A program made the translations under genes and the position numbers. A stretch of DNA of 64,000 nucleotides from a virus (lineage: Duplodnaviria; Caudoviricetes), in IMG/VR virus record IMGVR_UViG_3300021399_000115, positions 1-64,000 of that record, one strand, 5' to 3'. Below the pieces are notes generated by a model. The model had not been told where the DNA came from, made no database searches, and saw only the letters and a program-made list of their open reading frames with translations. This document shows positions 8,903-36,410 of this stretch, one piece after another. The stretch's first letter is position 1, and the number at the start of each line of letters is the position of its first letter.

Positions 8903-10702
8903 ATAATTTTCTCCGGACATCGGCGCTATATATTCTCTCAAATATTCCAACATTCTTGACTCTTCCGGGAAGAACAGATCTACTCCTTTAGCACTGACAA
9001 GCCATCCAAAAAAGTTACTACATAATTGTCCATATCTCCAGTCTGAAAAATATTCCTTATGGATATTTTTCACTTCTTCGTAAAAGCTATCTAATCTATT
9101 GGGATCTCTCATGACGTCCACTCCTCATAATCTTTATTATTATTCTTTTCTTCAAAACATTTCTTACATATTGGGTAGAGCCAATAGCCCTTAGTTACCA
9201 TCTTGCCCTGTTTGCCACAACAAATACAAGTCATTTCTGATAGATCTTCATACTTATTTATCCAATAATCATATTGAATGCTAATTTTCTCCGGCACTCC
9301 GCAATCATACCAGGTTAGCCGACCCCATTTCTCCTTAATCTCAAGGATTTCATACTTATCAAGATAATCACCCTCAATAAGTATATTGCGCAGTTCCTCG
9401 CACATCTGAAGTCCGAAAGCAGCATACCAACCCTCGGGCAATTCATCCAATTTCGTCCAACCATAATCATAATGAGAATTGTGGGGCTTCAAGAACGGAT
9501 ATCGTTCTATTAATTTTTTATTTTCTTCTCGAATGTTGTGACCGTCATACTTCATCATTTCATCCAGGAATTCATCCCAACTCATCATATCAATCACCAC
9601 CATTATCCACGGAGCAATATTTCTCAATAGCATCCTTCATGATATCTTTTAATTCATCTTCCTCGAATGTTGAACCTACAACAGTTGAATGCCAGATACT
9701 ATCTCTATGTGATATCATCAACATAAACACATATTTACCTGTATACTGATACGACTTTAGTGTAACATTAGATATCCAAGGAACTTCCAATATCCAATTA
9801 TGACCATGCGAAGAAAACTCAATGTTCTTGCCTTGACTATAATTATAGTCCAATATATTTGTAATTTCGAAGTCTTCTAGGCTTAATAATCTTTTAATAA
9901 TATCATGGATATAAATAAATGCATCCTTCTCTTCATATTTTTTGCGTTTATCCAGTTTGTTGCCATTGGTGTCTTTGTTTTTCTCTATCATGCCTAGCCA
10001 TTTTGCAGCTTTGCCGATAGTAGCACAATCCAACATATAGTATTCTACTCTAGATTTATATAAGCCAAAAGCTTGTTTCTCCAGGAGTTCATACTCATTC
10101 TGAATATCTTCAAGAGCTTCTTTTTTCTTAGCTACCCTTTGCTCAGCTTTGGCAATTACATCTAATGTTATATCATCATTAAATTCATTTCTGATTTTTA
10201 AAATAGCCATATGTTTTCTCCATTAATCCATATTTCTATAATCCCATAGTAGAAAAGAATAAATAATAATTAAAAGCACTCCTAAAACAATATTGGAGGG
10301 TCTCGTTAACTTTATGCCAATAAGAATTGATGTTACTCCGTTAGCTATCATTACAACATAATACCAAAACCAAAATCCTAGTTCATGTTTCATTGTTTTT
10401 CCTCGACTTTTTCTCATGTGGATATCTTTTGTAGTGCTGCATCGGCAAACCATGCATTTTGCGCCAGTTATTCCTTCCCTTAAGAATAAATCTTTTCATA
10501 TTTCTTATATCGACGCTATCTACATCTATCGTAGTTCTAAATGTTTTATCGCTGTCAAACCTACATATTACTTTATCTTTTTTCCCAGATGCAATATCAT
10601 TAAGACTCGGGACTTTCATATTAAACATGCCGCTCCCAATAACATTACCAAAACCATCAAGTATATAACCAATATTTTCAACTACCTTCATATTGTTCCT
10701 CC

Positions 10703-11812
10703 TTATGAAGCCATGCCAATCATTTTTTCTCCATACCATTTATTCCATTTGTCAATAGCATCTTGCTGTAATTCAGTGACAGGATCGTTAAACTTCTGGC
10801 GAGCCTGGACAATTTTATTGTTTCTTACCTCAATAGTTACCAACGATTTATCAGGTAATTCTTTATATCTGAGGAATAAAATATCGCACTCCCCATCAAG
10901 GACGCGCTGTATATATGAGGCTACACAGTTATTTTGCATTACTGCTTCATCCTTAATGTCTTGAGTGGAACGAGGATAATAGAATTTATAATCGCCAAAG
11001 GTTTTCTCCATATCTGGATTAATTCTTTTCTTAAAAGCAATTTCATCAAACTGATGTTTTAATCTATTATAATTTCTTGCAGCAATTTGATGAGTAGTTA
11101 GTAAATGGCGTGGATATTTATCAAATTTGGGGGATATTTTTTTCATCATATATGCATAGTCTATTAATGTTCCTAAAGCGCTAACTATACTATTAAAAGC
11201 CTCATATGTCTTGCAATAATCTAAATATTTCAGTAATCCTTTTGCAGTATATCCATAGTCTTTTATGGCTCTATTATATGAACTTTTATAACCGCCCGAT
11301 TGATAATATGTATCAGTAAATAAGTATCGAATGTCTTGTTTATCCAATGAGACAAAACTCATTGAAAATACAATATTGTAAGCATCCGGTATTTCTTTAT
11401 ATGACTTTACAAGAGTATCACGGAGAGGTATATCATATTCGCGGCATATTTTTATTAACCCTTTAGGGATATGTTTTATATCATATGACAATGCGTTTTC
11501 TGATAGTACATCAACTCCCGCAGAGAAGAACTGCTCAAATCGAGAATATTCCGGGACATGAGACAAAACAGTTCCAATATTGGTAATATAACAACTGCTA
11601 TTATAACGTACCCACTGCAAGAATTTTGCATAGTTTTTATCCTCACAACTATTAAAAACCTCGTCCAAGCTTTTTCCGGATAGCTGTGTTCTTAGATCTT
11701 TAACAACCTTTCCGCTTTTGCCAATAGCAACCTTATTAGCAAAATCATATTTTACGGTTTTCCCATCATCAAGTTCGAACACGAGATACTGTTTCTGCTT
11801 ATATACTTTCAT
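10703..11812 (-). CDS. PcfJ-like domain protein
   Basis: C-terminal PRSTQDIKDEAVMQNNCVASY...ILFLRY...SLVTIEVRNNKIVQAR. Confidence 0.8.
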   Translation of the reverse strand: MKVYKQKQYLVFELDDGKTVKYDFANKVAIGKSGKVVKDLRTQLSGKSLDEVFNSCEDKNYAKFLQWVRYNSSCYITNIGTVLSHVPEYSRFEQFFSAGVDVLSENALSYDIKHIPKGLIKICREYDIPLRDTLVKSYKEIPDAYNIVFSMSFVSLDKQDIRYLFTDTYYQSGGYKSSYNRAIKDYGYTAKGLLKYLDYCKTYEAFNSIVSALGTLIDYAYMMKKISPKFDKYPRHLLTTHQIAARNYNRLKHQFDEIAFKKRINPDMEKTFGDYKFYYPRSTQDIKDEAVMQNNCVASYIQRVLDGECDILFLRYKELPDKSLVTIEVRNNKIVQARQKFNDPVTELQQDAIDKWNKWYGEKMIGMAS

Positions 11813-11826
11813 ATTTGCTCCTATTA

Positions 11827-12858
11827 TTATAAATCTCCTTTTACAACCCTTGAATTTACGTCTACAACAAACTCATTTATTCTTTTATAATTCGGTTTAT
11901 CCGGCAGATCCGTGTTTTCTTTGTCATATTCCAGACGTTTTTCTAGTTCATCTACCATCTCGAAAAATTCCGGTATAGGTTGTTTATTGTCATCCAGATA
12001 TTTGCCATTACGGATATCCATTAGCAAATCATGTTCTTTTTCTCGATATGTAATAACCCGATGATTCTCCAAAATATCAAAACACATGTAGAATAGCCTT
12101 ACCAAATGCATCATATGTTTTCCAAGTTTATTGTGTTCTATGGCATGAGCATTACGCTTACCAATTTTTGAATAATCCTTAACAATGTTGTTCATTTCTG
12201 ACCACATCGCTTTATAATCACGCAATGGATAATGATGTAAGTTGATATCCATGAAAATTTCGGAATCGTAATCCTCTCGTGGAGACTTATCAATATATAG
12301 ATTGATAGAATCTTCTGGATAATAAAAATATTTTTCCGGAAATGTATATCTTGCGTTCATGATACTGTTCAAGATATGTTTCTCTCTCTGTTCTTGATTT
12401 ACAAGACGAACTGCTTTATTATCCAAACGTCTCAACTGGCTGTTAGCATAACCTCCAAATGAATTAACAGCTTTTTTAGATAAAAACATATCCGTATTGT
12501 CAATCAGTTCTCGCCCAATGTCGGAAAGATATAAATAATGTTCCGGTTTTAATCCAAGTATTTCAATAGTATTTGGATTGCAATTACTGAGTAGGCTTAT
12601 CAGTTTATTAAAAGCATAAACAACTGTGTCTGTTTCCTCATTAATAAACTGTTCAAAATTGGCATTTGTCAATAACTCCTCTTTCGAATTGAGAGCGCAG
12701 CCGCGAACATCCAAATCCGAAGTTTCTACGTTAGTCCCATATGACCATGATCCGCCCAAACCGAGGAGAATTATTTTGTTTCCCAGATGTTCATTTGTGC
12801 GTAGAAAATCATATTGTTCTGATGCAATTACATCTTTAAAATTCATAATTATCTCCAA
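11827..12858 (-). CDS. Pol-beta superfamily nucleotidyltransferase (RlaP-like)
   Basis: GGSWSYGTNVETSDLDVRG, NCNPNTIE and KHMMHLVRL motifs. Confidence 0.85.
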   Translation of the reverse strand: MEIIMNFKDVIASEQYDFLRTNEHLGNKIILLGLGGSWSYGTNVETSDLDVRGCALNSKEELLTNANFEQFINEETDTVVYAFNKLISLLSNCNPNTIEILGLKPEHYLYLSDIGRELIDNTDMFLSKKAVNSFGGYANSQLRRLDNKAVRLVNQEQREKHILNSIMNARYTFPEKYFYYPEDSINLYIDKSPREDYDSEIFMDINLHHYPLRDYKAMWSEMNNIVKDYSKIGKRNAHAIEHNKLGKHMMHLVRLFYMCFDILENHRVITYREKEHDLLMDIRNGKYLDDNKQPIPEFFEMVDELEKRLEYDKENTDLPDKPNYKRINEFVVDVNSRVVKGDL

Positions 12859-13300
12859 TCAAATTTTATTTTCATCGGGTGTACATTTTTCCATCACCAT
12901 GAAGCTGCATTCGTCCTGGCCATATAGTCCGCCGAGGCATACAAAAAGTCCAGTGTTTTCAAGGGTTTCAATAAGCTGTTTTGCTGTTTTTCTATCAATT
13001 GTCTGAATATCTGCAATTCTTTCAAATCTATCCATTTTTTCCTCCTTTTCCAATGAAACTCAGATTTCATTGTTGCTCACAGGGCGGAAGCAAATCGTAT
13101 CTTCCGATCCTTTTCATTACCTCAACACTCATTGCTGATACATCTTCGCCACTATAACCACACATATGAACGGCTGTCGCTATTGCATTCCATAGTTCCC
13201 AATCTCTCCGCTCTTTTTCATTCTTCGGAAAGACTGGATGAACCGGAGTTATTTCATTAAAAAAATTCTTCTCAGTTGCCATTTATGATATATCTCCAAT

Positions 13301-13526
13301 ATATAGGTGTGCTATTACGCCAAAAACTCCACAGTGGATTGACTTCGGGGCGATGATAAGCAACAACAATCCACGATCTATAACTTATAATCTGTCTTTC
13401 GACTCAGCCCATGTGATGCTACATCACATTCCGGATAGCTATCACGTTCTATGTGCTTACTCACTTCCGGACTCGTTGCGATTTATTCCTTAGATGATGG
13501 CTGCTTCTAAGCCTACATTCCTATAT
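13301..13526 (-). ncRNA. Putative ncRNA: 23S rRNA H43/H44 (L11-binding) mimic with a ~160-nt structured insert
   Basis: Closing stem ATATAGG/CCTATAT; AGGAATGTAGGCTTAGAAGCAGCCATCATCTAAGGA ... GGCGTAATAGCACACCT matches the GTPase-associated-centre sequence. Confidence 0.75.
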
Positions 13527-14715
13527 GAAATCAATTTCCTATCTTAGCTGCTTCTTCTGCTAATTCCTTTAAAATCATGGCGAGTTCTTTATCGTCCGGT
13601 TCAATTATGTAAAAATTAAAAGGGAATAGTTTTTTTAAACCATACCTATTGTCTTCAAGAGAATAAACAGCCTCAATGACACTAACCATAGATTGTTCCA
13701 TATATTTCCTGGTTAACTCTTTTTCGGTTTCTCCTGAAATTTTAAACCAGTAGTCTTTGTGGGGTTCTGTCATAGTATAAAATTCAAAATCTTCTTTTCG
13801 CATAAATATCTCCTGGAATCAATTTTTGATCACCACGTATATTGTATTGTCATTTTTTTAATTTTGGTACTATAACCAGGTCTATTTAAAATATCTCCCT
13901 TAAGGATGAGGAGACCTTTTTCATCATACCACTCAGTACTCCAGTCATAAGAAATCAAAATCTCTTTTGCTCTATTGTACTTATACTTCCACGCTTTTAA
14001 AGGATCCCTGACAAGTACGTTTTCGTGAGTTACAAAATCAGCATGCCCGACATAAAAAGTCTCTCCGGCATCTTCAAAGTATACTTCAATAATATATTTT
14101 TCCTCAGTCTTATTCATTATTCCTCCTAATCAAATCGGTTTTTATTTCATCATCGGACACATCTGGAATTCCGCTTTTTGGTATCACATAAAAATCATTT
14201 AATAATTCTTCAATATGTGCTTCAGTCCATATCGGCGCCTGAGTATTATCGACACTATTTATATACCAATCTGCCAATGTTCCAAAATCGTATGCGTCAT
14301 TTACTCGTAGAAATTTTTTCTCCATTTTTATCCTCTAACCATTTCTCATTTAAAGATACTTAACCTTAACTTTCCTCATCCTATTTTTCTTTTCACAAAT
14401 TTCAATAGCTTTGTTAAGATTTTCTTTGTCATATCTGAACACGGTTTGACCAAGTTCGTCGCTCATAAACGTCCAACCATTATCCATGCGCCATCCCCAG
14501 ATATTAGTGAACCAAACCGCAACAACCTCGCATTGTCTAATCTTATATTTACCAAATAGTCCTTGATAAATCACATAACAATATCTGTCAAGTCCACCAC
14601 CGGGGAACGGAACAAATGGAGAATCAAACTCTTTATTAAATTCTTTTATTTCAGTACCATCATAATCAACAGCTGCATCTTTGTGCGCGGTAAATAACAT
14701 ATTATTAATTCCTTT

Positions 14716-14890: not shown

Positions 14891-15072
14891 ATCTGCGGGC
14901 AAAGATTTGCACCTTGCAGTTCATCTTTACAAGTAGCCTCAGACTATCTAAGCATAACCCGTTAATGTGTTTTTATTGACTTTTTTCACCTGTCATCTCA
15001 CCAGCTATGGTCGTTATGCTGACTACTATATGATCGGTGTTTCCGAGCAATACCTATTCTGCCACCGCAGAT
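14891..15072 (-). ncRNA. tRNA-like RNA with acceptor, D and T arms and a long insert in place of the anticodon arm
   Basis: ATCTGCGG TG GCAG AATAGGTA TTGC ... GCAAGG TGCAAAT CTTTGC CCGCAGAT. Confidence 0.7.
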
Positions 15073-18000
15073 GAAATACTTATTTTATCGGTTCTTATCC
15101 TCAAAGAAACTTTTAGTATCAAACCATTTATCTTCAACAATGTTTCCTATAATTTTAATAGTATCTCCCCAGCCCATTGTTGCCACTCTAATAAATTTAC
15201 CGGTCATTTGATTATATTTACTAACACCGACGGTATCCATAATTCGCATTATATATTCTGTCCCTAGTTCACAGCCTTTGAATTCTTTGGCTCCAAGATA
15301 ACCAGTTCCGATTTTAAAGCCCCCATATACGCAGGCCCATCCATTACCTTCAAGAACTATTTCGGCACATAAACATCCATGGTCAGCCATCGAAAGATCT
15401 ACTTTAGTGATTTTGGCATTCTCGATTTTATAGCCGGCTTGTTCAAGTAATTCTTTATTCCATTCTTTCATTTTTTCTCCTATCAACTAATTTTACGTAG
15501 TATTCTCTATCAAAAAAACTGCCATTAGATATTTGTAATTTTATACTATTACCATTAATAATAGCTTCAGCAATTTCGCGCCTTAACCATTCTGGACGTA
15601 TAGAATCAACTACTATTTCATTTTTTATATCAATCATGCCATAACCCTCTACGATAAAACTTAGTTTTCAAGATATCGTCTATTTGTGTTCTCAAGAAAA
15701 ACACAATCAGTATTCCAATCATTAATAAACATGTCGCTCATTAATTTTTCTTCTACATCAATGAAGTATTGAATCTGATGCTCAAAGAAATATATTCCAG
15801 CTTCTTCTGATTCAAATTCTTCTTCGGATTCCCAGTAGAATGCCCTCTGATTGGTGACAAAGAACGAATCTGTATCTGGGCAAAAGGCAATAATCCAAGT
15901 ATCATGTGGTTGCATTGCATCTGGTGGCATCTCTCTATACATATTTTTTCCTCATCAAAAACTTCTTTCAGCTTCACACCAATCACGAAGTGCTATTACT
16001 TGCCTACTTGTTCACTTCTCAAGTCGTGCTTTAAATAGGTTAATTTTCCTCTGCACTTGCTATAATCACATAATCCTTTGTCGGATAATATTTTCTTTCG
16101 TCACCCTTCCAGATGCCGTAAATATTATCATGACAATCTATCCGCTCTATTACCCAGCCATATTCAAGTAAACTGCTTATCTCTCTATTTAGATCTTCGC
16201 ATGTATTTGCCGGTCGGCCATTCCCGATGACACAAAAAGATCTGTATATTCGTTTGGGAGTATTAGACGGTTGAGCAATGTATCCATCTGTTTTTATTTT
16301 TGGCATTGGCAGAATTGTCGGTTTATCTGGTATGTTCATCGGCTTTTCTCCAATCAATCCTCAATTTCATTCGCTGGTGCCACAAGTAATTCTAGCGCCT
16401 TTATTCATGTAAAGAGGTGCTGTTGTTTCATCACTCGTAAGCATCGCCGATGATGGCCACCAGTAACAAGAACTACGTCCGTCTTCCCACACTTCGTTTA
16501 ATAATTTTTCCAACTCATCTTTAGTAAATTCAATTTTGCCATCACTGTTTGTTGTAAATACTTTAACCATATTCCTCATGCCTCCTCAAAATACTCTAGA
16601 AACTCTGGCTTATAATCTTCCAGCAATTGTTCAAAGATATAAGTCAACGGCTGCGCCCAAACAACATCATCAGCTTCATATGGTGCATCGTCCCATAATC
16701 TCCTAATAACAAACTCCGTAAATTTAATCGGATCTTTTACTTTACAAATTGGATTCTCACCATCAAAATTTGTCGGGGCTTCATCAAATAACTTTACCAG
16801 GTCATCAACATCTATTCTTGCTACCAATTGCAGCGGATGATTTTGCTGCGAACCACGACTGTCTTCTCGTTCTATTGTAAATTTACAAATACTGTCCTCG
16901 TTATAACTCATATTTTTTCTCCAATCAAATCTTTTCATTATCTCCCTAATTAAACTATATCCAATTTTTGGCGGACAAGTAATCCAACACGTATGCTTTG
17001 TATCTTGATTTGATAACCATTTAAGATATTCTTTTTGATACTGGAGTAATTCAATCCCTAAATATTCTTCTACAAAAGTTACTATATCCATATCGTTCTT
17101 CTCATAAAATCTAATTTTCGTCTGTTACTAGCGTTGCCCACTCATTAACTCGATGACATAGACAACCATTATTTTTATCCGCATATTCCTGAAGTTTCGG
17201 TAAAATATTACCAACGCACCAAGAACTTTCATTTACATGAAATTCAATCATATCTTTGTCCCAATCCTCTGGAACTTCAATTTCAACATCAATTGGAAAT
17301 CTAATAGTTACATTTTTCCAGTTCATATTTTTCCCTCATCAATGACTTAGTTCATCCCCACCATAAGCCATGTCCATTAGTATATTTTGAAGCTTCTTTC
17401 TCCGACATTACTTGATCTTTATAAAAGTACTTCTCCATATCAGGATGTCCGTCTTCGTTAATAGCCCATTTTAGCCATTGAATAATTTCACGTATTTCAT
17501 TTTTGCTATAAACAACGAATCTGGCATCCTCATCAAAATCATAATCGGCGGTATCTACAGTTGCCCAATTAGTAATACGCTCCGCATGGTCACTATCCCA
17601 ATTAAAATTTGCTTCCAGATCAAGCGTACCATTAAATCCATCACCATGGCTGCCGGTTATAATTTCAAATCCTTCAATATTGTAACCATCAAATGTGGAG
17701 AACACCGTGCCATTTGGCATCTTGGCTAACTCATTACGATTAATTATCCTCATTATGTTTCTCCTCATCAACTACAACTTCGAGTTCAACCGTCTTATAC
17801 TTTGATCCATCTTTCGGAATAAACCCCAAACAAGGTTCTTCATTGCCGCGACAATCATGATAAAAGCAATCACATTCTACACAATATTCAGAAACTTTTG
17901 ATGCAGATTCATTCCCAGCTACCATAAAGCTACCATACACTTCGCACTTATTCATTGCCACGGCGCTTCCATAAATTTTACAGAAGTGCCGATAGCAAGA

Positions 18001-18967: not shown

Positions 18968-21569
18968 TTAAATTATATATCTGCCAACCGAATATAGCAA
19001 GGATCATGATCATAACTCTTACCTTTTTGCCAGCCGTCTGAATTGTATTTTTTTGTATAGTTACCAAAATCAACGGTAATATCTCCACGTTTTTTGCTTA
19101 TACTAATAATTGTTCCTATTCTTTTTGAGCCAAAACCAGAAGCCTGTTCTTCAATAACTTTATCTCCGATATTAAATTTTTGAATGTCCATATCATCCGA
19201 ATCCTCATCTATAAACTTTTCGCAACCTTCTTGATGTAGATCTTTACTGATAAACATCGATCTTAATCGACATGCATAACCATGGTCGCCATTCATATGT
19301 ATGTTCCAGGCTTTTAAATTGGCGCATCGTTGACATTCACTGTGTATATCTTTAAGTATCATGGCATCTCCTCCGGTTCATAAAAATCCAGTCCTAGTTC
19401 CTTAGCTCGCCCAATATACTCTTCCGGACAGTCCGTACTTATTCCCGCGACAGGATGAGTATATCCTTGCTCCAAAAAGTATGTACATCTATCGCAGTAA
19501 TAATGCTGTTCAACTATTCCCCAGCCAAATTCCGAGTAGTATTCATACTCGTTCTCCTTACCGCAGACAGGGCATTTTTTTATCTCTTTAATCATCTTCC
19601 TCATCTATACTCTCAGTCGTAAACTCATCAAACCAATATCTAATATCATCCAACAAACATGAACCGTCGCATTCGGCACCGTCATAATAAACGGTTTCCG
19701 CTAAAATATTTAATACATAATATGAATCCTCTTGCTTTTTAAGTAATTTCCCGGCAGCTTTGAGAAGTGTCTTGACTCTGTTTAATGCTTCTTGTGCGTT
19801 GTCCATAATATATCTCCTATTTATATAGTTATTAACCAGCTAATTATTACTTATATCAAATAATCTTTTTATTAGTACGCCCATTGTAATGCAGTAGGAA
19901 TAAATGACACACCAGAATCAGTTTCACAGTAAAAATCATCGCCCTCATCATTAATATAAAAAATTTTACTGTCTTTAAGAGCCTTAAATATTTCTTCGCA
20001 TTCCCTAATCTCTTCTTCGTCCATGCCATAGAAACGTTCTTCGTATGGATCTCTTACATCCTCATAATTGATGCTTGGCATACCATCGTCTGGAGCATAG
20101 ATTATAACCTCTTTGTCTGGGTGCATTTTTACAAATGCAATCAGCTCTTCTAATGTATTAATTTCTGCTTCTAATCCTTCTTCCCAAAACGAAAAATCTT
20201 CGGCTTTTATTGGAACGCTTTCAACTCTCTTCCCCATTTTATTTCTAATTTCTTCGGCAAGTTTTTCGTCATAGTCTTTTATACCATCAAGATATATTTC
20301 AAATCTCATTTTATTTACCCCTATCAAAAACTCTTTCTATCAACTGTCCAGCTGTTCCGCTTCATTGTTTAATATTTCCAAAATCTTTTCTGCTTGGTCT
20401 GCGGTCAGATTCTTCTTTTTTTCAAAGGCATCCCGGCATTTTCTAACTAAATTAACCTGACGGATTCGTTCTTCAATTTCTGGTGTTAATAACTGAATAT
20501 GTGATCTACTCCATATATCTCCACCTCTTTGCCATCCATCACATCTATACGTTTCTTTATAATTTCCATAATCAACAACATAATCGCCACGCTTTTCAGT
20601 AATGTTAACTACGATGCCAATTGATGTCGGGAGCGAGTTCCCATAATTTCTGATTACCCTATCTCCGATTTTTAAATTTAGATTATTGTTCATTTCATAA
20701 CTCCATCAAAAACTCATTTTAATGCTATTGCATCTATTATTTGTTTCTCATCACAGCCTTCTGTTTTAAGATATTCAACGTAAGCTTTTAAATCATATAT
20801 ATACTTTGTTAATTTATCTTTCCAATACTGTTCAGAATAATTGTCTGCATTGACTGTTCTAACAACAACTAGTTCTTCCTCAGTATCAATGTAATTACTA
20901 TAAAAATTATCATTATAATCTGATTCGCAATCTTTCCATGATCTTGCAATTAGTTTTTCTTCTTTATTTGGATACCATTTAAGACTAATTCTGACTTTGT
21001 ATAACTTATTTATAACATCATCATCAGAAGTATCATATTCTTCAACATTGTTACTATTTGGAAGCCACTTTTTGTACTCTTCAGCCTTATCTTTATTTAG
21101 AAAAATCTTTCGTATCATATAATCCGAATATACGCCAGAAGTAACTACATATACTTTCATATACCCCTCCATTAAAACTCATTTATAACCATTAACATTT
21201 CATGACGTCATTCAATCTGATTACTTGTTCTATTGAATTAATAGCAATCTTAATCATCTCTGGGTTAATCGTTCCAACAAACAGATGATTATCTTTATCT
21301 ATGTCATTATATAAATTCTTAAATCCTTCGAGAGCTTTTTCTTCCGTCATTATTACTTCCTCCAACAAATAATCGTCCTATACAAAGTAGATTAACATCT
21401 CTCAATTATATCTTGTCCGCGACATACTTCTTTCCAATAATCAATATACTCAATACTTTCTTCAAGATCGTGTGAATATTCACTGAAGATTGATTTTAAC
21501 AAATTTCTTACATCATCATTTGGGATTTTAATGTTATCATATCCAAGATTTATAGCCCCAATTATCTCA

Positions 21570-22766
21570 TCACATATCTTTTTCTCTTCCTTCAGTTTCA
21601 TATGCTATTCTCCTTTGAATATCATTTCTTGTTTTGCCATCTGAAATATAAGTGTTGTGGTTGTCCATGATACTATTCAGACAACATGTACCGTCGCTTT
21701 CATTATAATGGGTGAAAAAGAAGCTCATTTTCCAATCACGGTTCCCATAGGTAGTAAAATCCTTCAGCACTCTGGATTCTAAATCGTTCCAATCCAAAAT
21801 ACCATAGCGCAAACTACCTTGCCATTCGTTCCAGATATTTGTTTTATCGGTAGCAATATAATGACTAATTTTTCCAGGCTCACATTCTGTATCAAATCTG
21901 CCGACGCCATGTCTGGTAAGATAAGTACGACTTACATATACTACTTCTACATCTATATCATCAGGCAAATTATCGCGTATCATTTGTGCCGGATTTTGTA
22001 ACCCAGTATTACTCGGAGTGGTGTTTTTACCGTACCCCTCTACATTCTGATCCAGTAGCAATCCCTGACCGTTTTCAAAGATGATATAATCATAAACTCG
22101 CAAGATAGAATCATCAGTAAATATTGAGTTATTAATCAGTAAATCAAAATCGTAAATATAATTTGGTATAAGATTAGGAGAGTAAATAATGCTATCCCAT
22201 TTCGTATGATTGCCGATACCCTTTGAGTTAATTCTACGGCGGAAATAATCATCGCGCACGAACTCAAGATACTGAGTTTTTTCTTCCGGCGATTTTGCCG
22301 CAAACTCCCCGACCGTAATACCATTTCGTAAAATTGTTTCCCAGATTCCGCAACCACAACTTCCATGGCGATTTGGGCCGCGAGATTCCTCGATCATCAT
22401 ATTTGCTATCATGTCAAACGGGGTAGTTAATGGACAATCTTCGTTAATCAATATCGGATAAAATCTTATCCCAATGGTTAACAACTCTCTATATTCCTTT
22501 GCGAAATTCATAGGATTAACAATAAAATATGACGGCAAATATGTCTTTGCCCCAACAAATGTTCCAGAACCAAGGTGATGAAATACGTGAGATGTTTCGC
22601 TACCTGGCAGTGTAACAGTATGACCACGCTGACTTCCGCCGTTAGTTAACACGTTGAGACAACTTCTGTGTAATCGATAAGACTCGGCTGCAAAATAATC
22701 CGTAACCAATCCTTTTCCCTCATCCCCCGCTGACGCTCCTATAACAACTTTAACCTTCGTGGTCAT
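21570..22766 (-). CDS. Adenylosuccinate synthetase-like (PurA-family) protein, divergent
   Basis: GDEGKG, NGGSQRGHTV, HGSCGCG, IFENGQGLLLD, TPSNTG, YLTRHG, TN..NEWQGSLRYG. Confidence 0.85.
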   Translation of the reverse strand: MTTKVKVVIGASAGDEGKGLVTDYFAAESYRLHRSCLNVLTNGGSQRGHTVTLPGSETSHVFHHLGSGTFVGAKTYLPSYFIVNPMNFAKEYRELLTIGIRFYPILINEDCPLTTPFDMIANMMIEESRGPNRHGSCGCGIWETILRNGITVGEFAAKSPEEKTQYLEFVRDDYFRRRINSKGIGNHTKWDSIIYSPNLIPNYIYDFDLLINNSIFTDDSILRVYDYIIFENGQGLLLDQNVEGYGKNTTPSNTGLQNPAQMIRDNLPDDIDVEVVYVSRTYLTRHGVGRFDTECEPGKISHYIATDKTNIWNEWQGSLRYGILDWNDLESRVLKDFTTYGNRDWKMSFFFTHYNESDGTCCLNSIMDNHNTYISDGKTRNDIQRRIAYETEGREKDM

Positions 22767-22785
22767 ACTGATTTATCCTTTCTGT

Positions 22786-23649: not shown

Positions 23650-24263
23650 TACTCCTCATCCTCACTTTCTTCTTCAGCATCATCTACATCAATATTAAAA
23701 TCGAACATGCCGTCAAACATATTTTCAAAACCGCCATTACCCATCATCATGAGCGGGAGCAGATTCCCCATTCCAGATGATCCAGATCCAGATCCAGATC
23801 CAGATCCGCCTTTCATCATTTCTGACATCATCATATATTTGAAGATATTATTCATGCCGCCTTTTTTGCCATTCTTAAAGCTATCGCCGAACATGCTGAC
23901 AATTTTACCGTAGAAATATACGGAGCCCATAAACACATGTCGTTCCGGCAGGATAGTGTCAATCGTGCTGTCCTCATAGTTAATAACAGTGATTTTATTA
24001 TCTTCTACTCCAATTACGCATTTCGGCTTGCCATTAACCAGAATGATATCGCCTTTATGAACTTTATTCGTTGGGATTAAGAAAAAGAAATCTTCTCCGA
24101 TGTCGAAGACGAAGTTGCTGCAATTAACAAGTCGTCCCGTTTTCATGTTGTAAGTTTTATAACCATTACTCGTCTTAACGGCAATATCCCCATTCATACC
24201 AAGTCTGCACATTCCAGGTGCAATTTTTCCAAACATATTGTTCATAAAATTAGTAGCGTTCAT
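23649..24263 (-). CDS. Hypothetical protein of the PurA/vWA module with Gly/Met-rich tail
   Basis: ORF track; translationally coupled to vWA; contains a (GATCCA)n repeat at 23779-23808 encoding GSGSGS. Confidence 0.6.
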   Translation of the reverse strand: MNATNFMNNMFGKIAPGMCRLGMNGDIAVKTSNGYKTYNMKTGRLVNCSNFVFDIGEDFFFLIPTNKVHKGDIILVNGKPKCVIGVEDNKITVINYEDSTIDTILPERHVFMGSVYFYGKIVSMFGDSFKNGKKGGMNNIFKYMMMSEMMKGGSGSGSGSGSSGMGNLLPLMMMGNGGFENMFDGMFDFNIDVDDAEEESEDEE

Positions 24264-26752
24264 ATTTATTTCCTCCTTTTATAACAGATCTATAAATCGT
24301 TTTAATATTTTTAGAGCATCAAGGCCAGATTCTTCAGACGGCTGAAATCCATCCCAGGAATCTTGTAATAACCAAAATTCATTATCGTCAATCAACACAC
24401 CGTAGTCCTCAAAGTCCATTCCGACATTGCTAACCACTACTTCAGGTTCATCATATATCGCATACATGCCACTCTCTGCATCATCAAACGGAACAAGAAC
24501 TAAATCATTTTTCCAAACACACAATATTTTTCTATCATCCATAATATCGTACCTCCATGAAAGAATCGTTTTACTCTATTTGTTCCCACTCATCATCTGT
24601 CATTCTAAATTTATTCCCATCAAAAAATATTTCAGTAGAATAAAATTTCCTAGTAGCTTTGTCATAAATAACAGTTTTACATTCATCAACAATTTCGTTA
24701 ATAATATTCTGAGCAGTTATTCTGCAAATATCACCGGATGAATATCCATTAATCTTTGGCGGGACACGATTGCAATTTGAGCAAATTCCAATACCGCTGG
24801 CATTACAGATCTCCATTTTCTACCTCATTAATATTTTCTGCGATCAAAGAATCCTCTCATTAAAATTCAAGCATAGACTCATGTTGTCTATAGTACTCGA
24901 TATTAAATTTATTACAATTTCGTTTAATATTTACTTCATATCCATTCGCTAGAAGAATAGAAACAAAGTCAGATACGCATCCCTCGCTGTAACTTCTATT
25001 CCCCATTATGATATTAGCCTCGCCACATTTTTCTCGATCATAAATCGTAGGTGCATCATTAATCATTTTGGCTATCAATTCTCTTGAATTAAGATTATCT
25101 CGCCACACATGTTCCATTAGTTCGTTGGCATCAATCAGTCTCATTCTATTATTATTAACCATTATCATCTTTCCTTAGCCCCATCGGCAAAATACTTTGC
25201 GTTATATTATCTATACATAATTTTCGATCGGTAAATTCCCAAGTTTTTTCTACTGTATTAAAATCACAAGAGTGCTGAAGTGTCTTACCGCTGTCCATTA
25301 AAATACAATACCAATTCAATTCCGTATCTATATATGTAACTACCCCATATATATTTGAATTTTTTAAATGAATTACGTCTCCAACTTGAAAAGTTGTTGC
25401 GGGACATTTGTTTTCCAAATAATCTTTTATGGCTTCGTTATCTATATATCCGCCTGGATCATGCCAGTTTGCAAAATCTTCTAACCATTTATACAATCCA
25501 GCATCAGAAGTATTGATTACTCTTCTAAGTTTTTCTATATTTGTCATTTAAACCTCTCTAGAATTCAATTATTAAAAAATCCGTTTATTGATTATTTTTT
25601 TAATCTATTCCATTCTTCATAATTTAAGAATCTATTATATAAAAACTCTTCAATCTCTTTCTGAGTTTCTTCGTCTGGAATACTTCCTCCATGATAATAG
25701 TATTTAAAATCATGATATCCATATCTTTCAACTATCATATCATAGGATTGATTTTTATAAAAAAGAATTATATATACCGGATCGTTTTCAAGATAAATAC
25801 TTTCTATATTCATTATCTCTATATTGCTCATTATCAAATAACCCTTTCATTCCCATTCAACAGATCTTTTTACGACAATCTTTGGTTCACGATTACCCCA
25901 GTCAAAATATGCTCCGCACTTATCACATGAAGTTTCTTGTTTATATCCCATGATCCAATTATTGCAAACTGGACATCTGTACTCTATGTAATATCTCATA
26001 TCTCTTCCATCGCATCCATAATCCACTTTAACTCTTGCATTTGGTCTTCTCTTTACTATATCATTCATATAACGCCCTTTCATTGTACTTTTAACCACCG
26101 ACACGATGTACATGTAACTGGATGATCTTCGTCTAAATTGCAGTTTTTACGGTCTTTTTTACAGATATATCTGCCGGTCTCTTCAATAAATGGCGGATAA
26201 GGCTCCCATTCTGAATAATCGCAATCTTTTTTAGTTTTAGGCAGTTCATCTACAATATATTTCATACTTTGTCCTTTCGTTCCATATCATCTCTTATTAT
26301 CGGGCATTTACCCTGAAATAATCCAATACACCGTTCGTCAACTTGTGGCTCAAAATAACACCATAATGTGTTGTCATTTGGATCTTCTTCCAGAAACGGA
26401 CAATCTAAACGATTTTTAGGCATTTCAAGATCTAATTTAATCATCGTTGCCACCTTTCATTCTGCTTCGACAATCGTAGGCGCATCATAAATCTCTTTTG
26501 TATCCACATATCCATAAGCACCATCTTTAAGTGATTCCGCAGCTAGAACATCTGCATCAATCAATCTGCCGTGATGTTCCGGGAGTTCTACGAGTGGACA
26601 ATCATAAAGCCTTTCATCGTCACAATCGAAATCCACTAGAACCATTGTATCACTCCACCATCTTGTCCCCGTGACAGAACATGCCATCTGTTCAAGGTTC
26701 AATTGGCAATCAGAACACGACTTTGGCATTTCCATACCTTTAACCACTATAC

Positions 26753-27151: not shown

Positions 27152-28014
27152 AAAACAATCCCTTTCTTCCTTCTAAAAGATGTTTTAACATCAAATCCAT
27201 GGCTTTCAATTTTATCAATATCAGTATTACCAATTGGTTCTCGCCTCTCGGAAGAACTTTTTTCTAAAGAAAAATATTCCTCGAATGCTAGATATACATC
27301 AAGCGGATTAATCCATTCAGCAATCCCACATGCTTTCAATAGCGGAATATGTTTCTCGATTTTTCTGTTCGAATCATTACCAGGATAAATAAAAAATCTA
27401 TTTATACTCCTCCAAATTTGATAGTTATTAGTATCGATTGCCTGAATTTGTGAATCAATCATTTTCTCCGGATCTTTAAGTTTATAATATCCGGGAATAA
27501 ATCCAAAGTATATAACGTCTAAACTGATCAGCTTCCTAGCCTTATCGTAGTTTTTCCATGATCTTAGCAATTCTATATTATAATCAGATGGGCGATAATC
27601 ATCGAACTTGATTATATCTACGCCAAATAACCAAAAGGAATTACAGATTTGAAGTAATAGATAGTTTTTATTGCTATAATTAGCAAATCGCCAGCTATTA
27701 ACTTTTAAACTCTCACAAAGAAGTTTCTTAGTTAGTAAAAATGAATCTCTCCGATCAAACACCAAAGAATTATCTCGGTATATGTTCTGAAGGTAATCAT
27801 AGTAATCTGTATTTGTATCTATTATTCGCATATCAGTCCTCTACTCCAATACATAGACCCAACAAAAGTAGCAGAATAAGACCCATCTTGTTTGACATTC
27901 ACCACATATGTACCAACATAATGTGCATCAAAGTTTATTGAAGCGATTGGTTCCGGAATGTCAATTTCTATATTATCGCCAAGACCAACCACTTTAACAT
28001 CACCGTTAATATAT

Positions 28015-28449
28015 TCAGCCATTACTCTCCTTATGCTCCGAATTCTTAATTGCGTTATTAATAAAATAATTTGCCCACTGTTTATAGCCATCCTCATAAC
28101 TTCCGGCTCCTGCAAGTGCATTAAGCTCTTCTATGGAATAATCCATTAATTCTGCCGGTGGATTACGTTGAAGATATTTGCAAGCGTTGAGAAAAGCTTG
28201 GTTGATTATTTCAAATTTGATCTCTCGTGCTTCTTCTATGGGGGTTGACACCCTCTTGTTCCATATGGGAACGACATTATTAATTGCCTCTTCATCCGAG
28301 CGATATACAGTATCATTTTTCTTATAATCCAACTCACATCCACAGTTAGCACATCGAATTGAATATGAATAACATCCGCCATATCCACGGATAGGCTCCT
28401 TCTTTAATTCAACAGTACTGCCACAAAATGGGCAACATTTTAATTCCAT
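28015..28449 (-). CDS. Lar-like (restriction alleviation) zinc-ribbon protein
   Basis: MELKCCPFCG...CANC...WNKRV; start placed at ATG 28449. Confidence 0.6.
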   Translation of the reverse strand: MELKCCPFCGSTVELKKEPIRGYGGCYSYSIRCANCGCELDYKKNDTVYRSDEEAINNVVPIWNKRVSTPIEEAREIKFEIINQAFLNACKYLQRNPPAELMDYSIEELNALAGAGSYEDGYKQWANYFINNAIKNSEHKESNG

Positions 28450-29075
28450 GATTTCACTTCTCCAATCTCGGGCACCAGTCCGGACGATGTTTTCGATATA
28501 GTTTAATCGGTTCGTAATCCTTAGCTGCGCAATATCCTTCATCGGACATCTCGTTATAATCATAAAGTTCGCATTGACTGCAAACAGGTTTGGCGAGTGC
28601 CGTGGACATTTGCGCAAAAGTTTTAAGACGTACGAGTATTGATTTTATTTCTTCATCACTATAGTTATTCATTACGCATCCCCACCGATTTAGCACGTAA
28701 GCTGCATCGATTCTTCGCCTGGGCTAAGTCTAAGCCCACTAGTAGTCGGCGACGATGTCCACCAAAGTGATGTATTAGAATCATATCCATCTCGCCACAC
28801 TTCGTTGAGCAGCTTCTCAAGTTCATCTTTGGTAAATTCAATTTTACCATTGCTATTTGTCGTAAATACTTTAACCATAATTCTCTCCTTCTCAGAATTC
28901 AAATATCTTATCTCCGATATATTCTGACCTCAACATATCAAGCTGAATTCTTTTGTCGTCTTCTCTAACACTCTTACATGTGCTCTCTAGCAACCAGAAT
29001 GCTGCATATGCTTCGGCAAAATTCTCGAGCCAATCGGCAAACTCTTCCTCTGTCATCTGGCGAATTCTATCAAAA

Positions 29076-30522: not shown

Positions 30523-31770
30523 ACTCATTATTCATAATCCGGAGTTTTCCCATCTATAAAAGCTTTGCAAATTCTCAATCCGTTCCTAAGCCCAACGTGA
30601 TAATTATCATTCTCCCCATATTCCAATCCCAATTCTACATTGATTGACCGCAGCAACTCTTCTTTATATTCTTCAACGTCCATTTCTGGCATTGCGTCTT
30701 TTTCGTTATGCATAATCATGTCTCCTATCAACTAACTGAATTGGGTATTCTGATATTTTTCTCCCGTCATGATACATACTAATCCTGACTTCGTTACCGC
30801 TGCCAATCGCTTTAACTATTCCCTGGCGAAACCACTCGGGTTTTATTGTGTCGATGTACATTATTAGCTTGTTGCTTCTCAGGCGTTTCTTCTCATGTTC
30901 TTTTCGGCATTCTTCTTTCTGCTCATTATGAATGCGAAGCAACTCTCGCAGATCGGGGGCAGAATTATTTTTATCAAGCATATATATCTCCAATCAAAAT
31001 TTTGTTTCATTTGTTATTAACTATAATAATTTTCTTATTATCTGGGTCTAGACTATCTGATTCTTCAGCAATAATATTTCCGAAGTTTTTGATTTCTCGC
31101 TGACCGTACTCACATATAATTTGTGAGGAGCCTAAATCACAATGAATACTAATCATATCAAAACAACTTTCAATGACATCATCGAACTCTCGAGGTTTTA
31201 TTTGGTGACCGGAAACATATAACATTCGATCTGTATTATTACATATAAGCATAATTAATCCTCCGCTTCTCCCAATACTGCTCTGCCGACATACTCAAAC
31301 TCAACATCAGGTTCGCTAGACCATATATACGCAGTACCTTGCTGCGGAATCGGCACTCCAATCAAATAGGAAATATCGCCATCTTGTTCTCGTACATCGG
31401 ATATAATACCGAGTGAAGCCATCCACTTATGATTTTCCGTAAACTGGACTACGTCATTTTTTCTATATTTTGTCATAATTAATCTCCTCATCTAATATGG
31501 CTATGGACCACAAGCCAGCATCATGGTTATAACCAATTCTCATTTTAAAACCGGCTTTTTCTATTTCTTTCATTAGTTCATTGCATCCGTTCTCAGAGTT
31601 ATCCGCAGGATATATTTTCATGCCTGGTTCAACCGCAACAACTCTGATCGACAGTGGTCTACGCGGTGGCCTATAAAATAATTCTACATCTTTCAATTCG
31701 TATATATCGTCATCTTTTGATATACTGCAAGGGAGATAGCCGGGAATTTTAGTTCTCATCATTTTCCTCA

Positions 31771-33593: not shown

Positions 33594-33606
33594 AATTTCT
33601 CCTTGG

Positions 33607-33775: not shown

Positions 33776-34434
33776 AATTATCTATTATTATTCTTCGTAA
33801 GCCGACTTCTTAATAAATACTTTAACCACCGACCCGTCAAATGGCCCATCGCCTTCGAAATAATCACTGGTTACTCCCGTTACGTCCCACTCCGCATACT
33901 GAACAGGATAACTTTCAGCTTCAAATATACCGACATACTCACCGTCTTCAATGTCTAGTAGCGTAATTGCATTAGACAAAAGGACATTCTCGAATAAATC
34001 CTTAACTTTCATAATCTTCACAACAATTCCTCCTTACCACTGTCGCCCTTGCAGACAGGTCATGATATATTTTCCGAGTTTGCTACTTTGTGAGCAATAA
34101 AAATACTTCCTTTTGCCACATTCGGCACACATCTTGAGACCCTCTATAAACGGCGGATTATTATTTATCGGGCCATGAGTATAATGCCAACGGATTATGT
34201 GATACTCATGGTGACACATTAGTTGTTTAATAAATCGTTTAATTCTGTTTACCATTACCATATCTCCCCTCAGTGATTTTATTCAAGCGATCTGCTCCCA
34301 AATCTTTATCACCAATATCATAGTATTGAAGAATATATATTAATCCGCCCAACGTTCCGGCCCTTGTCCAGCCGTCAGTGCCATGGTTAATCTCTTCAAC
34401 ATATCTGTTGATATAATAATCAATCAATTCCCAA

Positions 34435-34833
34435 TCAATCGGCTTCGACATCATCGTCCTCCTCAATTACATAAACCTCAAGTCCATACTGATTAGCAAT
34501 GCTTACCATATTGCGAGTTCCGCGAGAACTTCCAATCGGAAAAGCAACTACAATACCTTCATCAGCCCGGGCAGCATATTTAGCTATCTGGTGATTACGG
34601 ATTGATTCGGCGAAATTATTATATGTTTTCCTGTCGGCTTCAAGCACTTTCAACGGATACCCATACTGATTGGCAAATTTTTCGCCTAGCATGTCCGCTC
34701 CTCTCGCATGACCGCTGATGATTTCGACATAATCGTTGTTAGCAATGGAATGGATGCCAATATTATCCATTACCCGGCAAAGTTTGGCATAATCATTAAA
34801 TTCTCGTGAACCACAAATAATAATTCTTACCAC
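34435..34833 (-). CDS. SLOG-family (DUF2493/YspA-like) protein
   Basis: RIIICGSREF, ISGHARGAD, RNHQI and SRGTRNM; GTG start at 34833 after GGAGG. Confidence 0.8.
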   Translation of the reverse strand: MVRIIICGSREFNDYAKLCRVMDNIGIHSIANNDYVEIISGHARGADMLGEKFANQYGYPLKVLEADRKTYNNFAESIRNHQIAKYAARADEGIVVAFPIGSSRGTRNMVSIANQYGLEVYVIEEDDDVEAD

Positions 34834-35993
34834 GGGTAAATCCTCCTTATATGCATCCGCCACAGCTACCATAGCGGAAATCGCTCTCATTAAATGCGAA
34901 GTAAATCTGGGATTTGAGGTTATAATCATCAGTTATTGTGCTCAACCACTCGTCATTAGCGGCAATCCAATCAACTGAGGATAATCCGTCTTCGTAATCT
35001 TCAAATTCCTCTTGCCATTCGTCATTAAAATACCACTGGGAATATGTACCAAATGTGTACATCGGCTCATTAACAATCTCCCGAGGTATATGGTCAGTAT
35101 AATCCTTACCGTCAATAGTCAGTGTCCAGGTACCGCTACATAAGCATGGGTACTGCCCGGACCAAGTGGCGTTTACTTTGTGATTATTTTTATTCATGGG
35201 GTTCCTCCTCAAGAATTGCAATTATTCTGGCTGCCTGATCGGCATTAATTGATGTGGTATCTTTCATCATTTCTACACATTTGGCTATCACCAAATCATC
35301 TCGTACAGTTTGTTCAATCTCGGGAGTGAGTAATTCAATACGGCAGCCATAGAATTCGTCCCAAGATTTACTGTAGTGAGTATAAAGATCGAAATCACAC
35401 ATAGTTCCATTAAAATCTACGGATATTGCCCCTTGCTCATCATTAACTTTAATAACTTTGCCAATAACCGGATGTTTACGGTAGTTAAGCACTACCTTAT
35501 CTCCTATAGTAAATTTTGATTTATTCATAGCGATTATCTCCTTGCATTCGGTTCATAAAACTCAAAAGAATTTGTTTTACCATTATACCTAATAAATCCA
35601 TCCATACTCTCACGAAGACGTTCTCGGTTCTTTATGCAACACTGCATGAGGTCATCCATTAGCTTTGGGGTAAGTCGTTTTTTGTGGTGGGCTAAATCCG
35701 GCTGGATGTATTTGAGCACGTCCTGAACGGCAAGCAGTCCTTGTGTAAAACCGCGATTGTATTCTCCGGATAATCGTTCCATGGCAAAATCTCCTTATAC
35801 AATTTTGAAGTAATAATTAAACTGTTGGTTAGTTAGTAACACTGTGCAGTAATCACTTACATAGATTACATAATCTTCGCCGGCTTTGGAGTATTGGTAT
35901 AATTCTCCGCTAGTAAATAGTTCAGTTGGTGGATTGATGCATTCTGCATACATGAGGTGTCCTCCTTGGGAAAATAATAATAAAATTCAATTT

Positions 35994-36410
35994 TTACGCC
36001 ATACCAATAATATCTTTTTCGCTGACCGCAAATTTTTCATCGCCTATATTGCTGACGAAGCACTGACTATTTGTTCTTTTATATCCTTGCAAAATATAAA
36101 ATGTTGGTGCTTCTGCGGATGAAATTACCTCGATAACTTTGCCATATCTATGACGTCCGCCATAATCAACCTTGACCATATCACCTTTAGTAGGTATGAA
36201 CACTTTAATGTCATCATTAATAAATTCAACTACATCGCTAATATTACAATTTAATCCTCTACAAATTTTATCAATCATTGTAAGCGTCAAGGATTCATTC
36301 CGTTTTAGTTTGGCTGCCGTTGCTGTTGCAATGTCTGCAACTTTTCTCAAATCACGGATGTTCATATTTTTCTTTTTTAAGGTTTTCCATAACGGCGCGT
36401 ATGAAATCAT
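35994..36410 (-). CDS. Cro/C1-type HTH transcriptional regulator with C-terminal extension
   Basis: MISYAPLWKTL...TAAKLKRNE..IDKICRGLNCNISDVVEF. Confidence 0.85.
   Translation of the reverse strand: MISYAPLWKTLKKKNMNIRDLRKVADIATATAAKLKRNESLTLTMIDKICRGLNCNISDVVEFINDDIKVFIPTKGDMVKVDYGGRHRYGKVIEVISSAEAPTFYILQGYKRTNSQCFVSNIGDEKFAVSEKDIIGMA

Follow-up and report, generated by a model that had tools for sequence, protein, structure and literature searches.

The phage genome and its repeated dyad

The DNA analysed here (the window) is the first 64 kb of the 132,319-bp IMG/VR record IMGVR_UViG_3300021399_000115, a phage genome referred to below as G000 and rated 68% complete by CheckV. Its genes lie on the minus strand up to about 90 kb and on the plus strand beyond, with coordinates obtained from a custom script that scores open reading frames (ORFs) and not from a standard gene caller. 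Between positions 10222 and 35997 (the region), 72 genes were called, and at some of their junctions recurs the element that is the subject of this work, an 18-bp dyad of the form ATNAAA-N6-TTTNAT in which two 6-bp arms enclose a 6-bp centre. No match between the region and cultured phages was found by megablast.

On its gene content, G000 is a distant relative of Bacillus phage SPbeta, given that it carries both a lysogeny module of the yopP-yopQ-yopR type and a DnaE-type replication module. The gene order of the former is that of yopP-yopQ-yopR, with an Xer-like tyrosine recombinase, a YopQ homologue (E 4e-24) directly upstream of the MrpR-like gene, and an MrpR-like protein of 297 aa (67305-68198). 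This last protein is matched by the Pfam MrpR N-terminal domain (MrpR_N_CB, E 3e-11), a family for which B. subtilis alone gave a match among 14 control genomes, and almost all of it aligns with solved YopR/MrpR chains (E about 3e-10). Homologues of SPbeta YorL, YorI, YorJ, and YomM are also present. The relatives used for comparison are G002, which is close to G000 (202 kb, rated complete, with a DNA polymerase 97% identical), and the more distant G001, G003, and G005.

The window has 8 copies of the exact pattern; in 100 shuffled sequences the mean was 1.01 and the maximum 4, and none reached 8. The whole record has 18 copies, and none of the pattern read backwards. With the spacer varied from 0 to 30 bases, a length of 6 gave 18 copies in the genome, 8 in the window, and 6 in the region, while the other lengths gave 0-6 in the genome. 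The enrichment suspected in a preliminary description of this DNA is therefore borne out, with a peak at the 6-base spacer only. That description had counted more than 20 palindromes in the region; the three that it quoted, at 13053, 15071, and 25833, are present exactly as given, but the count falls to 6 exact and 14 credible junction copies. When at least 9 of the 10 fixed positions were required, the region gave 25 hits versus 7-12 at other spacings, which means that about 10 of the 25 are background. In the relatives, exact copies with the 6-base spacer number 12 in G001, 28 in G002, 10 in G003, and 3 in G005, with 0-7 at other spacings (0-6 in G003). Under a junction rule requiring a match of at least 9/10 and a motif 3' end 6-22 bases before a called start, there are 19 hits in G000, 15 in G001, and 21 in G002, with 0-9 at other spacings.

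The consensus of 66 junction copies from the five phages is A-AT[A>G]AAA-N6-TTT[G>T]AT-n-GGAG, the centre being without consensus. Conservation is limited to 5 bases per arm, with nothing conserved outside the arms, and in a leave-one-out comparison all 10 fixed positions were conserved (26 of 27 to 33); most variation was seen at position 18 (T 26, A 12, C 4). Read on the coding strand, the motif has an A or a G at position 3 and, in most copies, a G at position 16. The inverted repeat reported in the preliminary description is thus accurate for the fixed positions, to which the dyad symmetry is confined, and not for these two variable arm bases, which are unpaired and do not covary; an A at position 18 is likewise uncompensated. 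A directional motif was also considered, given that all 12 occurrences of AT[AG]AAA-N6-TTTGAT are on the coding strand and none on the other, but the relatives and the leave-one-out comparison show a true dyad. The strand asymmetry is limited to the two free arm positions, and position 3 is constrained by the upstream stop codon. No general signal ahead of the ribosome-binding site (RBS) was found across 188 RBS-anchored genes. The motif is real and is not a product of base composition, which is excluded by the spacing peak, by the lack of this general signal, and by the retention of the motif wherever the stop falls.

Each copy is placed after the upstream stop, which often falls within its left arm, and ahead of the next RBS, as had been described before. 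Of the 19 junction copies of G000, 8 have the upstream stop at motif positions 2-4 and 3 have it ending at position 1. The RBS begins 1-2 bases past the motif, with GGAG at positions 20-23 and a G at position 20 in 51 of the 66 copies of the five phages. Within the region, 14 copies are found at junctions, 11 by the start-distance rule together with those at 15071, 19855, and 25833. Copies are restricted to the accessory arrays and are lacking from the replication and structural blocks; for the replication block this agrees with the earlier description, with no junction copy between 31 and 74 kb of G000.

All 14 copies lie on the minus strand. The exact copy at 12858..12875 (ATGAAA-ATAAAA-TTTGAT) holds the stop of the gene at 12859..13035 in its right arm and is followed by GGAG; homology to G002 spans the motif and the RBS and then ends, and contigs of one metagenome run (X3) join at 12854 and 12871. 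At 13053..13070 the copy is exact with fully complementary arms (ATGAAA-TCTGAG-TTTCAT), has the upstream stop at positions 2-4, and folds at -8 kcal/mol. The exact copy at 15071..15088 lies at the stop of 15085..15471 and is followed by an ORF-free stretch; here G002 homology starts exactly at the first motif base, the upstream flank being unrelated. The exact copy at 19855..19872 (ATAAAA-AGATTA-TTTGAT) abuts the stop of 19872..20309, shares its centre with copies at G002 58852 and G003 98054 that have unrelated flanks, and contains a contig joint of run X9 at 19864. At 25833..25850 the exact copy is of a compact type, A-TGA-AAGGG-TTATTTG-AT(G), with identical 18-mers beside unrelated flanks in G003 and G005 and a contig joint of run X1 at its end (25850); in relatives, this compact (GGGTTA) type has the stop, the RBS, and the next start all within the motif. 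The exact junction copy at 30993..31010 (ATGAAA-CAAAAT-TTTGAT) has the stop at positions 2-4.

The other junction copies of the region match 9 of the 10 fixed positions. They are found at 14129..14146 (AATAAA-AACCGA-TTTGAT, preceding the RBS of 13830..14117), at 15654..15671 (TTGAAA-ACTAAG-TTTTAT, with the stop within the spacer and the same centre at G002 62719 beside unrelated flanks), at 15954..15971 (CTGAAA-GAAGTT-TTTGAT), at 16353..16370 (ATGAAA-TTGAGG-ATTGAT, with the same centre at G002 62515, flanks again unrelated), and at 17104..17121 (ACGAAA-ATTAGA-TTTTAT). Further along, the copy at 20323..20340 (ATAGAA-AGAGTT-TTTGAT) has an identical 18-mer at G003 97810, where the AGATTA copy is also the next one; that at 20705..20722 (TTAAAA-TGAGTT-TTTGAT) folds at -5.1 kcal/mol, and that at 24557..24574 (GTAAAA-CGATTC-TTTCAT) shares its centre, but not its flanks, with G002 58465. 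Two exact copies of the window lie outside the region, one at a gene start (40511) and one intragenic (63549).

Centres and breakpoints in related phages

G000 and G002 are mosaic within the arrays. Among G000, G002, G003, and G005, 12 families of near-identical 18-mers were found in which blastp gives no match between the phages for the genes on either side; in these families the identity is confined to 16-18 motif bases, sometimes reaching into the RBS. Identical centres beside unrelated flanks were found for 13 pairs of copies from different genomes among the 66 junction copies, where at most about 0.6 would be expected by our own analytic calculation from 1614 pairs and the base composition of the spacers. 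Shuffling the centres among sites retains the same set of centres and is uninformative (observed 22, permuted mean 23.3), and the analytic expectation was used instead. Paralogy of the flanking genes was considered and rejected, with only 7 paralogue pairs in G000.

The order of the centres is also kept. The second array of G000 (73.5-82 kb) has the series GTCGGA > ACCGAG > CAACGA > CGGTTA > GATAGG ... GACACG > ATCAAG, which recurs in G002, and in G003 from CAACGA onward, with intervening genes that differ in identity and number. In the window, CGATTC (24557) > GAGTTT (20323) > AGATTA (19855) are found in the same order in G002 and partly in G003. Two dyads of the second array, ATGAAA-ACCGAG-TTTGAT and ATCAAA-CAACGA-TTTGAA, overlap by 2 bases at 78283-78316 with no gene between them, and this tandem arrangement is conserved in G002 at 200599-200632, perhaps as an empty slot or a double binding site.

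Homology that is present on one side only ends exactly at the motif at 12858, 15071, and 81119. In IMG/VR, one upstream class of the GGGTTA-type copy is followed by four different downstream sequences, and one downstream class is preceded by two upstream ones; the scan for this 18-mer gave 56 loci, mostly chance hits in unrelated contigs, which were used only where flanks were shared or many dyads were present. Given that the compact type holds stop, RBS, and start inside the motif, no one translational role can be assigned to the arms. The slots between copies hold one to about a dozen genes. These sequence comparisons support the view that the copies behave as boundaries of exchangeable gene units.

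Alignment of the relatives shows that homology breakpoints are about three times commoner at motif junctions than at gap-matched junctions lacking the motif, and the refutation test set in the preliminary description thus did not refute its idea. Junctions of G000, G002, and G003 with a gap of 5-200 and both genes under 300 aa were scored for a breakpoint, taken as the end of BLAST homology: motif junctions had 28 with and 39 without a breakpoint versus 78 and 367 for non-motif junctions (odds ratio 3.4, p 3e-5). When only same-strand junctions with gaps of 18-50 were compared, the counts with and without a breakpoint were 17/26 versus 25/122 (odds ratio 3.2, p 0.003), and in the yorM-yotN array of SPbeta, phi3T, Goe11, Goe13, and SPbetaL2 they were 44/11 versus 61/43 (odds ratio 2.8, p 0.008). 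Gene neighbourhoods in G002 gave a result in the same direction: motif junctions were broken in 8 cases and kept in 1, with both genes absent in 10, versus 91, 103, and 44 for the other junctions.

The Logan contigs of four gut-metagenome runs contain many structural variants of the region. Among about 24 listed joints of a set with 84 further ones, at least 4 have an end inside a dyad or no more than 5 bases away from it (12854, 12871, 19864, and 25850), a count that is anecdotal. Contigs in all four runs skip 162-165 bases at 13324-13490, inside the ORF-free stretch 13301-13526, indicating that relatives carry the RNA flagged there in the preliminary description without its large insert.

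SPbeta itself has 14 exact copies with the 6-base spacer versus 1-6 at other spacings. Nearly all of them have the form ATAAAA-N6-TTTTAT, with the arms fully complementary (ATAAAA/TTTTAT) in 13 of the 14. All are intergenic or overlap a stop, with TAA at positions 2-4 for yoqY, yorT, and yorZ; some lie in divergent or convergent intergenic DNA (57147, 128076, 39885) and some in annotated stem-loops. Four cultured SPbeta-like phages have 5-10 copies per 20-26 kb versus 0-3 at other spacings, and at 9/10 a 7-base spacer is also enriched in the Bacillus phages. The SPbeta copies at 113663 and 132746 of NC_001884 share an additional repeat on their downstream side (TTAGA-n-TAAAAATAAAAT...GGAGG), and the Bacillus phages may have a longer composite junction element. 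As judged from these occurrences, the dyad is an element of gene junctions across the SPbeta-like family, in uncultured gut phages as well as in SPbeta, phi3T, and the Goe phages. No prior description of it was found in the literature searched, in which the reports on SPbeta were covered in part (PMC10516654, PMC8270828, bioRxiv 10.1101/2021.11.22.469490, bioRxiv 10.1101/2025.11.27.690993, and PMC5467207); the 1999 SPbeta genome paper, Brady et al. 2023, and supplements lay outside this search, and one is possible there.

Candidate readers and explanations of the dyad

The window holds no match to PF00589, in agreement with the earlier remark that no recombinase is present in it; the nearest matches lie at 69.5 kb and 128 kb of the record. 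The search of the rest of the genome for a tyrosine recombinase, which had been proposed with that remark, thus found two enzymes, but nothing links either of them to the motif. Tyrosine recombinases are encoded by all five phage records, with 2 in G000 and 4 in G002. The Xer-like enzyme of G000 (69504-70466), whose best family matches are of Xer type, retains the Arg, His-x-x-Arg, His, and Tyr motifs when aligned with XerC-like 4a8e and scores 64.6 bits on the integron-integrase model, versus a cut-off of 265. The second one (127841-128857) resembles SPbeta YomM. In the alignment, SPbeta YopP has a Lys in the place of the second Arg. YopQ homologues were found in G000-G003, and that of G000, referred to as YopQ/SroE-like, has a DGYHR motif and a sub-threshold similarity to DGQHR/DndB-like proteins. 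SroE is a second repressor of SPbeta-like phages, with targets left unassigned in the portion of the report covered (bioRxiv 10.1101/2025.11.27.690993); from the gene order, we infer that SroE is YopQ.

The explanation preferred here, which is held tentatively and at somewhat less than an even chance, is that the copies are joints for in-register crossover between co-resident relatives, with homology-dependent exchange and with arms bound by a dimeric phage protein. The crossover would take place at copies of the dyad between a prophage and an infecting phage, or between two infecting phages. Given that a crossover inside a shared copy needs the same centre in both partners, the exchange would be in register and would leave both genes whole, the left arm carrying the stop, with the RBS and the start to its right. 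In our view the crossover would most likely depend on homology within the shared 18-27 bp, and the invariant arms would be kept by the binding of a dimeric phage protein, for which the YopQ/SroE-like protein and the Xer-like recombinases are the family-wide candidates. The homology-dependent version would make the dyad a small analogue of the PeSL linkers of T4-type phages.

Several observations weigh against this explanation. An identity of 18-27 bp is short for homologous recombination, and no protein was tied to the arms in this analysis. Most junctions of the region lack the motif (about 58 of the 72 genes), 39 of the 67 motif junctions among the three gut phages have no breakpoint, and the 30993 copy, within a block conserved with G002, is a copy without one. 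Gene gain or loss is also found at non-motif junctions, as for 27822..28022 in comparison with G002 and for a single-gene loss (28892..28083-type) at 28890>29087 in contigs of two runs, where there is no motif. The families fam153 and fam154 occupy different slots in G003 and G000, showing that exchange is not always in register, and the junction-placed 9/10 counts of G003 have no spacing specificity (10 at a spacer of 6 versus 8-9 at 3-5). The breakpoint tests pool non-independent pairwise comparisons on custom gene calls, and motif junctions cluster in plastic arrays, so that region is only partly controlled; the Bacillus set, being a single array, helps in this respect. Finally, the sequencing data covered for ongoing exchange were assembled Logan contigs.

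Site-specific cassette exchange, in which a phage or host Xer-type recombinase would bind the 6-bp arms and swap strands across the 6-bp centre, comes second and is an unlikely alternative. It would account for the layout of arm, centre, and arm, each of 6 bp, with invariant arms and copy-specific centres, and for centres kept in order beside unrelated flanks; the confinement of the copies to accessory arrays fits a role in gene swapping better than general silencing. Tyrosine recombinases in all five records, with catalytic motifs kept in the Xer-like enzyme of G000, are consistent with it, as is the finding that in Acinetobacter xrs the sequence of the site sets compatibility (PMC11705084, covered in part). 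Nonetheless, no recombinase lies beside the arrays, the Xer-like gene being part of the lysogeny module, the second Arg is aligned with Lys in SPbeta YopP, and the 2-bp overlap of the tandem pair (G000 78299/78283) is unlike an excision product. Known core sites of tyrosine recombinases have arms of 7-13 bp, and in comparison with the Xer/dif layout the 6-bp centre and the two arms are present, but with 5 conserved bases the arms are shorter than those known. No circular or cointegrate joints were seen in the contigs, which limit such detection, and the crossover positions in these data are indistinguishable from those of homologous exchange. It is considered unlikely that SPbeta-like phages carry a natural recombinase-mediated cassette exchange in which a YopP/SroD-like, YomM-like, or host Xer protein reads the arms and the 6-bp centre serves as the address. 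Slightly less likely again is the view that the dyad is an operator or roadblock only, where a dimeric repressor or a nucleoid-type protein would silence or tune the accessory arrays, much as at the stoperators of mycobacteriophage L5, and breakpoints would be linked to the motif only through the roominess of junctions in plastic regions. Fixed positions with dyad symmetry around a free centre are what many dimeric DNA binders recognize, and the SPbeta copies in divergent or convergent intergenic regions point to reading at the level of DNA over a stop-to-RBS role. SroE is at hand as a repressor with unassigned targets and a YopQ homologue in G000-G003 (bioRxiv 10.1101/2025.11.27.690993), and analogous start-associated repeats without an explanation are described for Cluster K mycobacteriophages in the portion of PMC3203893 covered. 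An operator alone leaves the ordered centres beside replaced genes unexplained, however, and the breakpoint excess survives gap matching and holds within a single array; moreover, replication and structural operons have no sites, and promoters carry a different 14-mer instead.

A signal at the level of RNA, such as a hairpin, a processing site, or a coupling element between stop and RBS in the polycistronic mRNA, is very doubtful. The copies are always in transcribed spacers at a fixed distance from GGAG, often with the stop in the left arm, 3 of 12 window copies fold at -5 to -8 kcal/mol, and SPbeta has its complementary arms and annotated stem-loops. The remaining 9 of the 12 fold no better than shuffles (0 to -1.6 kcal/mol), for which the hairpin alternative of the preliminary description fails, and the lack of covariation between positions 3 and 16, the uncompensated A at position 18, and the RBS inside the motif in the GGGTTA type, which frees the arms from any one translational role, argue in the same direction. 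There is next to no chance that the motif is a by-product of composition, arising from stop codons, A/T-rich spacers, and RBS, or from start codons (ATGAAA encodes Met-Lys). ATGAAA and ATAAAA do contain TGA or TAA, the exact copies outside the region are a gene start and an intragenic one, and some 10 of the 25 one-mismatch hits are background; against this stand the sharp peak at the 6-base spacing, the negative result for the 188 genes, the retention of the motif whether positions 2-4, the spacer, or the right arm hold the stop, and the conservation of whole 18-mers between phages.

The integron-like capture system put forward in the preliminary description does not agree with these data. 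Integrons resemble the present arrays in being one-directional series of small promoterless genes separated by recombination-type repeats. Their attC sites are folded elements of about 55-140 bp, whereas the sites here have 18 bp and lack a stable fold in 9 of 12 cases. The array also has no adjacent IntI, attI, or Pc, its slots hold one to about a dozen genes where cassettes of one gene or one RNA had been envisaged, and gain and loss take place away from the motif as well. That first reading is therefore partly supported, for the exchange joints and not for the integron.

A close parallel to crossover at shared copies is found in T4-type phages, where PeSL elements combine a sigma-70 promoter with a terminator stem-loop and exchange is attributed to recombination between elements (PMC2839356, as far as covered). 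Both kinds are short, conserved, and non-coding and separate small, dispensable genes in hyperplastic regions, and in both the insertions, deletions, and replacements between relatives are bounded by the element, as found here in the breakpoint comparison. The dyad has only 18 bp, whereas PeSL elements are much longer and have a known function; it contains no promoter (nothing is conserved at the -35 position) and usually no stable hairpin (9 of 12), and it has copy-specific centres whose map order is conserved. On Acinetobacter Rep_3 plasmids, pdif/xrs are Xer sites that flank variable regions (PMC11705084, in the portion covered). As with the dyad, many two-armed sites with a 6-bp centre bound variable modules, with exchange between replicons and not excision. 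The plasmid sites have been shown to be acted on by XerCD, whereas no enzyme is known to act on the dyad. They are 28 bp long with distinct 11-bp XerC and XerD arms, and the arms of the dyad are alike, with 5 conserved bases each. Heterospecific lox/FRT sites also have identical arms and differing centres, and only like centres recombine, so that register is kept, but these are 34-bp sites with 13-bp arms in engineered use; we know of no natural phage system of this kind. The L5 stoperators of mycobacteriophage are repressor-binding repeats. In Cluster K mycobacteriophages, SAS is asymmetric and contains the RBS, and ESAS consists of 17-bp inverted repeats with variable spacing (PMC3203893). 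Like the dyad, SAS/ESAS are short repeats just upstream of the starts of a subset of non-structural genes of diverse families, sometimes containing the upstream stop; unlike the dyad, neither SAS nor ESAS is reported, in the portion of the literature covered, with a copy-specific centre kept in order across phages.

What fixes the position of joints in phage mosaics is rarely known, PeSL of T4-type phages being the main worked example. The dyad is much smaller and strictly spaced, and it marks joints of accessory arrays across a wide family in a way that can be tested in phages of B. subtilis. If a protein reads the arms, they would constitute a new kind of regulator site or a new site-specific system of gene exchange, and either way the dyad, if this is true, would explain how small genes turn over in large temperate phages without breaking their neighbours; many of these genes are likely defence and counter-defence genes. 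Exchange by a recombinase, if true, would mean scarless in-register swaps and would provide the orphan tyrosine recombinases of SPbeta, a model phage for 50 years, with a role. New in the present analysis are the distinction between the dyad and the SroF-type box, the finding of the motif in SPbeta proper, the breakpoint tests made on cultured relatives, a gap-matched control, the compact stop-RBS-start type, and named candidate readers.

A separate 14-base box and other features of the genome

In SPbeta, the element SPBRE is bound by MrpR/SroF/YopR, a protein with a tyrosine-recombinase fold that covers 24 bp as a monomer (PMC10516654 and bioRxiv 10.1101/2025.11.27.690993), and the form ..ATACAAAAAATATGTAT.. 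was derived here from the seven SPbeta promoter regions named in PMC10516654. SPBRE resembles the dyad in being a repeated element of the same phage family, and G000 encodes an MrpR homologue. The dyad was nonetheless rejected as the MrpR/SroF operator, given that SPBRE differs in sequence and lies at promoters, where the dyad is not found. In G000 and G002 that role fits the 14-mer AATTAATTATTAAA, which with at most one mismatch occurs 28 times in G000, 28 in G002, 2 in G003, and 0 in G001. It lies nearly always on the coding strand, often as two copies some 60 bases from each other, on either side of a TTGACA-like -35 and a TATAAT-like -10, and elsewhere just before the RBS. In the window it is on the minus strand, paired at 58727/58665, 37647/37610, 31849/31784, 18967/18909, and 8902/8842, and single at 56527, 44266, 39776, 39487, 36442, 18663, and 2517. 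From this placement, AATTAATTATTAAA is likely the box of an MrpR/SroF-like repressor, analogous to SPBRE, and a better candidate for it than the dyad. A role of the dyad as a promoter for YonO was rejected as well: the dyads lie in early arrays, whereas YonO is reported to start the late operon from a single site (PMC5467207).

A scan with a PurZ-like protein of the window gave one distant relative, G001, which shares DNA with the window only at 21615-24282. This stretch belongs to a 2.7-kb module (21570-24282) that holds the PurZ-like gene (phrog_1211, 21570-22766); at 80% DNA identity, it is the sole long stretch common to G000 and the otherwise unalignable G001. The module may be a laterally moved unit and may hint at modified adenine in the DNA.

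A HEARO RNA (Rfam RF02033, 154.6 bits) is encoded on the minus strand at 7775-7998 and is directly followed by the gene for an HNH endonuclease of 425 aa (6472-7749), with which it forms an IscB-type pair of RNA-guided nuclease and RNA in a phage. Two tRNAs are found on the same strand near the end of the window, one at 62647-62722 for which ARAGORN gives an undetermined anticodon and one at 62787-62879 detected with Rfam.

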